In this document: piece by piece, positions 22,047 to 22,385 of the stretch | Layout of the letters: each line of letters opens with the position of its first letter | How positions within the stretch are numbered: position 1 is the stretch's first letter | Sequence record: PV287706.1 | Length of the DNA stretch: 29,617 nucleotides | Source: Escherichia phage Midge | Direction: 5' to 3' (one strand) | The notes under the pieces: model-generated | Databases searched by the model: none | Told to the model about the DNA's origin: nothing | The model's input: the letters and a program-made list of their open reading frames with translations, nothing else | Translations under genes and position numbers: made by a program

Positions 22047-22385
22047 TCATTCACAGAGCGCGGTTGCTGCATCCATTACCGGATCCAAAGGTATTTTTAC
22101 GCCTTTGTAATGTGGGCTATCTTTCCAAACAGTATCAATATCACTCCCCTCAAGCTTTCCAGACTTTACGCCATCAATGGCTAGGCCGTTCAATGGATAG
22201 CGGTCATCTGTTGCTTTGTCGTACACAAAAGCATATCGACCGTTCACACAAGACACCGACGCTTTTTCAAAAGTTAGAGGCCAGTCTTCACCAAACTTAG
22301 CCCCGTCTAAATCCTGTGATTTTTCGGCGGATGAAGCACCAAAAGAAATGGTCAAAAATAACGCTAAAAAAAGTTTACGTTTCAT
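22047..22385 (-). CDS. Small secreted two-cysteine protein, possibly DUF2511/YebY-like; moron between cI and int
   Basis: 113 aa from MKRKLFLALFLTISFGASSA (Sec signal peptide) with an AAGGGA RBS; mature part has two Cys including one near the C-terminus (ALCE). The longer ORF-track form starting at 22457 overlaps cI. Confidence 0.6.
   Translation of the reverse strand: MKRKLFLALFLTISFGASSAEKSQDLDGAKFGEDWPLTFEKASVSCVNGRYAFVYDKATDDRYPLNGLAIDGVKSGKLEGSDIDTVWKDSPHYKGVKIPLDPVMDAATALCE

Follow-up and report, generated by a model that had tools for sequence, protein, structure and literature searches.

A small gene lies between the repressor gene cI and the integrase gene int of Escherichia phage Midge (sequence record PV287706.1; the window, i.e., the whole stretch of DNA analyzed here, comprises 29,617 nucleotides [nt]), and its position raises the question of what its product would do for a lysogen. 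It is a genuine protein-coding gene rather than a chance open reading frame (ORF), and its product belongs to the DUF2511/YebY family. Prophage expression and an extracytoplasmic location of the product are likely, as judged from the sequence. By analogy with Glo, an exclusion protein of the P2-family Vibrio cholerae phage K139, we propose, with a probability of about 0.4, that the protein is a periplasmic exclusion or protection factor. Exclusion was put first because of the slot of the gene in its operon, the analogue in the same phage family, the diversity of alleles within one host species, and the retention of cI together with the gene in a decayed prophage.

The gene, its family, and its context were already known from databases and one paper, and proteins that are 96 to 99% identical exist. 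What this analysis adds is the recurrence of such genes behind repressors in diverged prophages, their constant position in the PSP3-like loci sampled, and their nature as a multiallelic cassette. The gene thus stands as an already annotated one whose context is now better described.

A DUF2511/YebY-family gene in the lysogenic operon

The gene extends from an ATG (22385 to 22383) to a TGA (22049 to 22047) on the minus strand and has 113 codons counting the stop, i.e., it encodes 112 amino acids (aa) (MKRKLFLALFLTISFGASSAEKSQ...ATALCE). A preliminary description of the window, made from the sequence alone, had the coordinates and the strand right, and its length of 113 aa was off by one, the stop codon having been counted. 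For comparison, we fetched 80 related loci from IMG/VR, where a relative is encoded on at least 101 viral contigs; carriage of the gene was the criterion by which all 80 were chosen. A mechanically produced list of ORFs contained a longer version (136 aa; ATG at 22457). Its extra 5' part runs into cI, and in-frame stops interrupt it in 47 of the 80 homologous loci; as the added stretch is not open in most homologues, we rejected this version and took the MKRK start as the true start. The AAGGGA ribosome-binding site proposed there is present (Table 1; the coding-strand sequence preceding the start is TAAGGGAATCTATG). A TAAGG(G/A) motif together with a gap of 8 to 9 nt between cI and the gene is kept in 79 of the 80 loci, and translation of the DUF2511 gene is probably coupled to that of cI. 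A chance ORF is excluded because at least 101 viral contigs and 67 complete Escherichia coli genomes carry the gene and because its ratio of nonsynonymous to synonymous substitution rates (dN/dS) is ~0.09.

Regarding the family, the Pfam profile DUF2511 (PF10709) matched the protein with 61.9 bits (gathering cut-off, 21; E = 8e-17) over profile positions 5 to 87 of 87, and phmmer against PDB sequences retrieved E. coli YebY (7N0J; E = 1e-7). In an alignment of 48 family sequences, four residues (W35, C46, Y63, and C111) do not vary and six (G32, N66, G67, A69, W87, and P91) are nearly invariant. An AlphaFold2 model built from the family alignment reached a mean predicted local distance difference test score (pLDDT) of 89.4 (>93 over the mature domain). 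Foldseek aligned the model to YebY 7N0J with a template modeling score (TM) of 0.90 and a root mean square deviation (rmsd) of 1.2 Å over 92 residues, and the superposition reproduces the YebY fold, i.e., a four-stranded antiparallel sheet packed with helices. MlbQ (2MVO) was the second and only other real structural match. Given that Pfam, phmmer, the alignment, and the fold agree, the likeness to DUF2511/YebY suggested earlier proves correct, and the protein is a member of that family by the hidden Markov model, cysteine, and fold tests. Among the PHROGs, it falls over its full length into phrog_2950, a family of "unknown function"; no NCBIfam family matched it.

The two cysteines noticed earlier, one of them near the C terminus, are C46 and C111. 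In the phmmer and family alignments, they fall on C48 and C113, the cysteines that form the disulfide of E. coli YebY; loss of this disulfide abolishes YebY expression (PMC8689200). C46 is kept in all of the 80 related loci and C111 in 78, both exceptions being C111W.

The segment preceding the mature domain has the features of a Sec signal peptide, as had been claimed: a rule-based check found a charged N terminus (MKRK; net charge of +3 over the first six residues), a core of 11 hydrophobic residues (mean Kyte-Doolittle value, 2.6), and an AXA-type cleavage site (predicted motif S-S-A↓E-K after residue 20; positions −3 and −1 are occupied by small residues). Sequence variation among homologues peaks in this segment (mean column entropy, 1.46 versus 0.75 for residues 21 to 87), but despite this turnover the homologues keep its charge and core properties and an A-x-A↓E-K end. 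Such a pattern is the one expected of a functioning signal peptide. The lipoprotein reading was ruled out, as the protein has no lipobox.

YebY itself is encoded by the third gene of the copper-uptake operon yobA-yebZ-yebY; it is a monomer of ~11 kDa found exclusively in the periplasm (Hadley et al. 2021; PMC8689200). It resembles the window protein in its Pfam family and fold, its Sec signal peptide (predicted for the window protein), its size of ~10 kDa, and its conserved Trp and Cys pair; the soluble periplasmic location of YebY is experimental. The two differ in that they are only 26 to 29% identical and in that the window gene lies in a phage repressor-integrase operon, not beside copC/copD. 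An AZY-operon YebY gene follows copD directly and is two genes from copC, whereas the neighbors here are cI and int. Apart from a separate chromosomal operon near one prophage remnant (P0017; see below), neither the window region nor the related loci contained CopC or CopD. Furthermore, the nearest relatives outside the clade of the window protein (30 to 38% identity) are phage-borne, not AZY-type YebY proteins. By context and by nearest relatives, the window protein is not an AZY-operon YebY ortholog.

The position of the gene between cI and int on the same strand, as first described, was confirmed by Pfam, with a 186-type CI upstream and a tyrosine integrase downstream. The gaps are short (8 nt from the cI stop to the DUF2511 ATG; 22 nt from the DUF2511 stop to the int ATG), and consensus scans predicted no sigma-70-like promoter or terminator between cI and int (22024 to 22460). 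Beyond cI, a candidate pR and a weaker candidate pL face each other, as do the annotated pR and pL of phage 186. According to the 186 record, "the lysogenic operon," which runs through cI and int, is transcribed from pL and from pE, the latter activated by CII; in the K139 record, cI and int are annotated on one PL transcript. On the basis of the short gaps, the scans, and the 186-like layout of pR and pL, cotranscription with the repressor is the natural reading; by analogy with these phages, the DUF2511 product should be made with the repressor in every lysogen. The term "moron" used in the preliminary description fits in part: the gene is extra relative to 186, Fels-2, RE-2010, and P2, but it has no predicted promoter or terminator of its own, and its G+C content (~0.43) does not deviate from that over cI and int (0.42 to 0.49). 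It is an operon-embedded cargo gene rather than a classical moron.

The region is 92.5% identical to that of Klebsiella phage RCIP0057 and 80 to 85% identical to those of E. coli phage vB_EcoM-613R3 and Salmonella phages SEN1, PSP3, SI22, and SW9, each of which has a 112-aa homologue (69 to 88% aa identity) between cI and int. The window gene is the ortholog of PSP3 gp28 (orf28; NP_958085, "DUF2511 domain-containing protein" in RefSeq; 86% identity), and it shares with gp28 and its orthologs the length of 112 aa, the cI-int slot, and the short gaps. Similarity of gp28 to an E. coli hypothetical protein is already noted in the PSP3 record, and Hadley et al. described yebY homologues between an XerD-like recombinase and a phage CI repressor, a context that they called "unrelated to copper homeostasis" (PMC8689200). 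The suggested synteny comparison with 186 and P2 was run, and neither phage has the gene in this slot: cI and int overlap by one base in 186, and P2 has a 115-nt gap without an annotated gene between repressor and int. Only 2 to 3 nt separate cI and int in Fels-2, RE-2010, and a Klebsiella Gegevirus. Other cargo occupies the slot in HP1 (four small ORFs between repressor and int) and K139 (orf2 and glo); in a Klebsiella Elveevirus, ORFs for a 349-aa protein and a 201-aa membrane protein directly follow cI, and int was not located in that locus.

Recurrence behind repressors and allele types

An exhaustive HMMER search of 1.84 billion representatives yielded 345 representatives of the family. 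The phage clade of the window protein collapses to one representative at 60% identity, and the next matches are at most 38% identical. We looked up the genomic context of seven of these next matches. The P0017 gene (38%) follows a tandem-helix-turn-helix (HTH) CI gene in a decayed prophage remnant, the P0018 gene (36%) lies between a single-HTH 186-type CI gene and int, the P0022 gene (33%) lies between a tandem-HTH CI gene and int, and the P0027 gene (30%) follows a 149-aa HTH_3 repressor-like gene. Two others are located in P2-like elements: the P0020 gene (35%) comes after a 118-aa ORF without a Pfam match, divergent from a CII-like gene and before a 75-aa HTH gene, and the P0021 gene (35%; next to tail genes) has its upstream side off the contig end and is followed by a 75-aa ORF without a Pfam match. 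The P0030 gene follows a 198-aa gene; this context is uninformative because the contig is ~1.2 kb and the Pfam matches of the upstream gene are weak. Thus, four of the seven distant relatives lie directly behind a repressor-type gene and two more in the regulatory region of P2-like elements. Given these counts, the presence of DUF2511 genes in prophage lysogeny modules is recurrent and does not reflect a single insertion.

In the decayed remnant (L013/L014, positions 1 to 5400; found in 27 index blocks), the structural genes have been lost, and the tandem-HTH cI and the P0017 gene remain an intact pair. The remnant lies ~3.5 kb from a chromosomal copC-copD-yebY operon, and an integrase fragment directly adjoins yebY; a Yersinia paper likewise described a prophage that had inserted with an integrase gene on one side and a YebY-family gene on the other. 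To the AZY-operon YebY of the genome with P0017, the window protein is 26% identical and P0017 itself 32%. The phage lineage is thus a separate paralogue that coexists with chromosomal YebY. Capture of the gene by imprecise excision next to yebY, suggested by the closeness of the remnant to an AZY operon, was considered and set aside; it leaves the location between cI and int unexplained, and sequence divergence is too great for a test of it.

Within the PSP3 lineage, the order cI-gene-int was found in all 80 fetched viral loci, and the gap between gene and int is 21 to 25 nt, except in a few loci with a second cargo gene before int. This second gene (L055, 5355 to 5861; also in L064, L066, and L068; L013, 5475 to 5975) encodes a cytoplasmic protein of 166 to 170 aa with bPH_3/GRAM and C-terminal SHOCT domains. 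Among 5,426 complete E. coli genomes, 67 (~1%) carry the DUF2511 gene, and the cI-int region was matched at ≥80% coverage in 67 genomes, equal to the number matching the gene. Given that the 80 viral loci were selected for the gene, they cannot reveal PSP3-like phages that lack it, and only the E. coli counts bear on this point; as far as sampled, the gene appears constant in the PSP3 lineage. One Salmonella allele was present in 1,924 index blocks of an assembly collection, and the matches from a scan of species-representative genomes include Enterobacter sp. MGH 24 (98% identity), Escherichia, Pantoea, and Erwinia. In a plasmid collection, the matches were confined to records of chromosomal size and to AZY-type YebY, and none had a bacteriocin or plasmid context.

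Among the 112- or 113-aa proteins encoded by the 80 loci, 56 are distinct; they can be grouped into seven to eight allele types that are 47 to 70% identical to each other, and at least three allele classes occur within E. coli alone. The gene and its flanks do not diverge in step. Relative to the window, L049 is identical in cI (100%) and nearly so in int (98%) but only 77% identical in the DUF2511 gene; the corresponding values are 94, 96, and 48% for L101 and 71, 100, and 49% for L097. The window and RCIP0057 likewise share cI (99%) and int (98%), but the window carries the PSP3-type allele (77% identity to RCIP0057 and 86% to PSP3). Nucleotide identity in sliding windows drops from 90 to 100% down to 40 to 70% between ~22420 and ~22060 and then recovers. 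For the 234 locus pairs with int at ≥95% and cI at ≥90% identity, the DUF2511 gene is <70% identical in 35%, and three allele types are combined with four cI types on one int type.

Regarding selection, pooled Nei-Gojobori estimates of dN/dS were 0.09 for the mature part within types, 0.15 at intermediate distances, and 0.27 for the signal peptide; values for the signal peptide, residues 21 to 87, and residues 88 to 112 all lay between 0.09 and 0.28 within and between nearby types. Residues 88 to 105, which vary most between types, showed no dN/dS excess. The picture is one of old, functional alleles that are swapped as a cassette via recombination in the conserved ends of cI and int, and such a cassette polymorphism fits a conflict or specificity gene.

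Two allelic variants were observed in addition. In allele cluster 1 (a subset of L087 to L105, e.g., L097 and L101), the C-terminal third contains VLKKDPRDPLERVDIGP in place of VWKDxPxYxGVKIxxxP, and W87 is replaced by L; both cysteines are kept, and the cluster is under purifying selection. A natural C111W change (...ATALWE), with loss of the C-terminal disulfide cysteine, occurs in L047, L048, and protein cluster P0003 (101 member sequences; E. coli) and could represent either an inactivated allele or a tolerated change.

Proposed exclusion at the envelope and its alternatives

If the protein acts as a periplasmic exclusion or protection factor, the following course can be proposed. The cI gene, the DUF2511 gene, and int would be transcribed from pL and pE in every lysogen, by analogy with the mapped transcripts of 186 and K139. 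The preprotein would be exported by Sec and cut after residue 20, and the mature protein would be oxidized by the Dsb system to its disulfide form, yielding a free periplasmic protein of ~10 kDa. This protein would bind or block at the envelope and protect the lysogen. Protection would most probably take the form of superinfection exclusion, with a step between adsorption and DNA entry of the incoming phage being blocked, and the allele types would match different exclusion specificities.

The analogy is drawn with Glo of K139. The K139 PL transcript is cI-orf2-glo-int, and Glo is annotated in GenBank as a "periplasmic protein; involved in phage exclusion"; a secondary paper presents it as the single superinfection-exclusion protein known to be soluble and periplasmic (PMC3952083). 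The role of Glo is taken here from these two sources. Like the window gene, glo belongs to a P2-family phage, occupies the same slot of the lysogenic operon (cI ... glo-int), and encodes a small protein with a signal peptide, a feature predicted for the window protein; Glo (137 aa) is soluble in the periplasm and has a cysteine near each end of its mature chain, as does the window protein. It differs in having no Pfam match and no homology to DUF2511 (hhalign probability, 3%), so that homology of the two was ruled out, and in that K139 has an additional orf2 with a BRCT domain.

Gram-positive hosts offer further parallels, in temperate phages of lactococci and streptococci. The lactococcal Sie genes (Sie2009) lie between integrase and repressor, ltp lies in the lysogeny module of TP-J34, and both Sie and Ltp are extracytoplasmic proteins that the prophage expresses and that block DNA injection (PMC7693887, PMC3952083). 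They share with the window gene their place in a lysogeny module and differ from it in being membrane-anchored proteins or lipoproteins with unrelated folds. Exported proteins encoded behind a repressor have thus repeatedly proved to be exclusion factors. The window protein may act like Glo, Sie, and Ltp, and it is a member of none of those families.

Several points weigh against exclusion. Because Glo is not homologous to DUF2511, the likeness between the two is one of position, compartment, and size only. Foldseek against viral structures (BFVD) gave nothing significant for the window protein, the PADLOC defense models did not match it, and no experimental study of a phage DUF2511 protein turned up in the searched literature; functional data for the family are limited to copper import (YebY) and lantibiotic binding (MlbQ). 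Pooled dN/dS gave no signal of positive selection, and the allele diversity cannot be called adaptive, given that all values are well below 1. The neighboring cI is also mosaic; because the alleles are old and under purifying selection and cI is mosaic too, the shuffling of the cassette could be ordinary phage mosaicism. Proteomic evidence for expression was sought in an E. coli study that lists a "DUF2511 domain-containing protein" (QGA31985). This entry was discarded as evidence for the prophage gene because its interpolated accession position among Lpp, SodC, LrhA, and FadL is that of chromosomal yebY.

We regard as somewhat doubtful the broader idea that DUF2511-fold proteins form a widespread class of allele-diversified periplasmic DNA-entry blockers behind the repressors of Peduoviridae and other prophages, with each type excluding different phages. 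If it were correct, it would provide a first function for the noncopper half of the family and would suggest that chromosomal YebY similarly blocks an inner-membrane partner.

The first alternative is that the protein modulates host physiology as a second, divergent YebY that tunes the YobA-YebZ (CopC-CopD) copper importer, e.g., by damping uptake, and thereby alters copper tolerance and the copper-dependent activation of mar. The shared family and fold favor it, as does an SGK-containing helix insertion that the phage proteins and YebY have in common. Coexpression of YebY lowers YebZ-dependent copper accumulation, possibly as a "safety valve," and the known hosts Escherichia, Salmonella, Klebsiella, and Enterobacter have AZY operons (PMC11923076); the proximity of the remnant with cI and the DUF2511 gene to a copC-copD-yebY operon (3.5 kb) points the same way. 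However, identity to AZY-operon YebY is low even for the copy in the same genome, and the nearest relatives are phage-borne. About half of the DUF2511 genes do not adjoin copC/copD, the phage context being the one termed unrelated to copper, and YebY binds copper weakly and only in its reduced form (PMC8689200). Nor would a conserved host partner obviously favor seven to eight types (47 to 70% identity) in one host species. On balance, we consider this explanation unlikely.

A second alternative takes the protein to be a sequestering factor like MlbQ, one that binds a peptide antibiotic, a bacteriocin, or another envelope-active molecule and gives the lysogen an advantage unrelated to phages. 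MlbQ of Microbispora, the second-best structural match, is a small extracytoplasmic binding module with the same fold and the same disulfide position, and it has been proposed to confer lantibiotic self-resistance by direct binding (PMC8689200). Allelic diversity could mirror a variety of toxins, and the retention of the gene in a decayed prophage agrees with a benefit of this kind. We nevertheless judge it quite improbable: MlbQ comes from a Gram-positive producer, is anchored in the membrane as a lipoprotein with a long linker, is encoded in an ABC-transporter immunity operon, and is ~24% identical to the window protein, which has no lipobox. Moreover, no bacteriocin, microcin, or ABC-transporter genes adjoin the gene in any locus examined, and true plasmids, a common location of such immunity genes, did not yield it.

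The exclusion, copper, and MlbQ leads share one idea, i.e., a small extracytoplasmic module that binds or blocks at the envelope. A third alternative assigns the protein a phage-autonomous role exerted from the periplasm, e.g., in lysis timing, release, or the readsorption of progeny to lysing cells. The invariable cI-gene-int order in the viral loci and the matching E. coli counts, which are consistent with every such prophage carrying the gene, are in its favor, and, if the phage resembles 186 with its pE, an establishment promoter could transcribe the gene during infection as well. This role seems very unlikely, though, since the close relatives 186 and Fels-2 do without the gene in this slot, the gene is kept with cI in a remnant stripped of structural genes, and a place in the repressor operon implies expression while the lytic genes are off. 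Finally, a functionless passenger (i.e., a captured host-like gene that persists only through its position between two essential lysogeny genes) is scarcely credible: no phenotype is known and the C111W variant, which is expected to lose the disulfide, occurs in some E. coli prophages, but dN/dS is ~0.09, the length is constant at 112 to 113 aa across alleles with saturated synonymous sites, the signal-peptide properties survive sequence turnover, and the two cysteines are kept in 80 and 78 of the 80 loci.

Provided that every lysogen makes the protein, ~1% of complete E. coli genomes would specify an additional YebY-like protein of the periplasm, as would many strains of Salmonella, Klebsiella, Enterobacter, Erwinia, and Pantoea. 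Should exclusion be the function, the protein would be a soluble periplasmic exclusion factor with a relative of solved fold, and its natural alleles could serve to map specificity, with relevance to host range in phage therapy. Should the copper reading hold, carrying the prophage would be tied to the handling of copper and to antibiotic tolerance that depends on mar. In either case, a role would be found for the roughly half of the DUF2511 family that is not beside copC/copD.

Coordinates and neighboring elements

Table 1. Features of the DUF2511 gene and the surrounding lysogenic operon (positions are those of the window)
Feature	Coordinates	Strand	Basis
Coding sequence of the DUF2511/YebY-family preprotein, stop codon included	22047..22385	−	Translation; Pfam PF10709; phrog_2950 over full length
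Shine-Dalgarno sequence AAGGGA, 4 nt upstream of the ATG; overlaps TAA, the stop of cI (22394-22396)	22390..22395	−	Read from the sequence
Predicted signal peptide, codons 1 to 20 (MKRKLFLALFLTISFGASSA), signal peptidase I cleavage after SSA	22326..22385	−	Rule-based: charge, core, −3/−1 residues
Mature domain, 92 aa, ~10.1 kDa, pI ~4.6, YebY fold	22050..22325	−	AlphaFold2 model, Foldseek
Cys46 codon	22248-22250	−	
Cys111 codon	22053-22055	−	
cI, opening the lysogenic operon; repressor of 280 aa with an N-terminal tandem of two HTH domains and the CI C-terminal domain	22394..23236	−	Pfam
Tyrosine integrase int, 349 aa, downstream of the DUF2511 gene	20975..22024	−	Pfam Int_N, Phage_integrase
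Bidirectional intrinsic terminator-like hairpin	20814..20840	.	Terminator scan, inverted repeat I1
Candidate lysogenic promoter pL, TTGATT-17-CATTAT	23340..23368	−	Relaxed consensus search, 8/12; inferred
Candidate early lytic promoter pR, TTTACA-17-TAAAGT	23258..23286	+	Promoter scan, 9/12

The window is assigned to a PSP3/186-type (Eganvirus-like) P2-family phage or prophage because of its cI and int, the weakly Cox-like 123-aa gene and the CII (CP76) gene beyond the divergent control region, and the gpD and Ogr-like zinc-finger genes further left. The hairpin past int likely marks the end of the lysogenic operon, given that it is the first terminator-like site on the minus strand there; the 186 record has an annotated lysogenic-operon terminator at the equivalent place. 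Over the whole window, Rfam matched no RNA family, and a tRNA scan found none.

The CI protein matched Phage_CI_repr in two stretches (E = 5e-54) and Phage_CI_C (E = 1.5e-21). Its tandem Phage_CI_repr HTH domains are located at residues ~9 to 75 and ~99 to 162, and its 280 aa compare with 192 aa for 186 CI. The same HTH duplication is carried by most DUF2511-linked CI proteins (278 to 315 aa) and by a Klebsiella Elveevirus CI; an earlier paper on PSP3 CI described "a longer C-terminal domain."

Regarding upstream partners of periplasmic proteins in lysogeny operons, K139 orf2 (L115, 2194 to 3099), which precedes glo, encodes a BRCT domain (E = 6e-6), and the gene upstream of the P0030 gene (L114, 195 to 791) has weak BRCT and WYL matches. 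The pairing of a BRCT-type cytoplasmic protein with a periplasmic protein may be recurrent in such operons.

The first gene of the early lytic operon (23350 to 23721, plus strand; 123 aa) matched Cox weakly (E = 0.03) and has its own PHROG, phrog_3554; its PSP3 counterpart has been described as a singleton Cox/Apl analogue with no detectable domains. A direct repeat, CAAAATCAAWCT, occurs in the 5' end of this gene by the candidate pL, at 23360 to 23371 and 23395 to 23406 (35 nt apart), and may be a binding site for Apl/Cox or CII. Another direct repeat, ACYTCTGCCGCCAT, occurs between the ogr-like gene and the 3' end of int, at 20757 to 20770 and 20982 to 20995 (225 nt apart); it resembles the 186 Int arm-type consensus YAYCGCCAYTY, and the pair may bracket attP. 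Lastly, a CCTCGGT motif 8 to 12 nt upstream of the int start (22025 to 22046 in the window; L026 to L105) is kept in nearly all allele types, the spacer being otherwise variable, and could be a translation-control element of int or an unusual ribosome-binding site.

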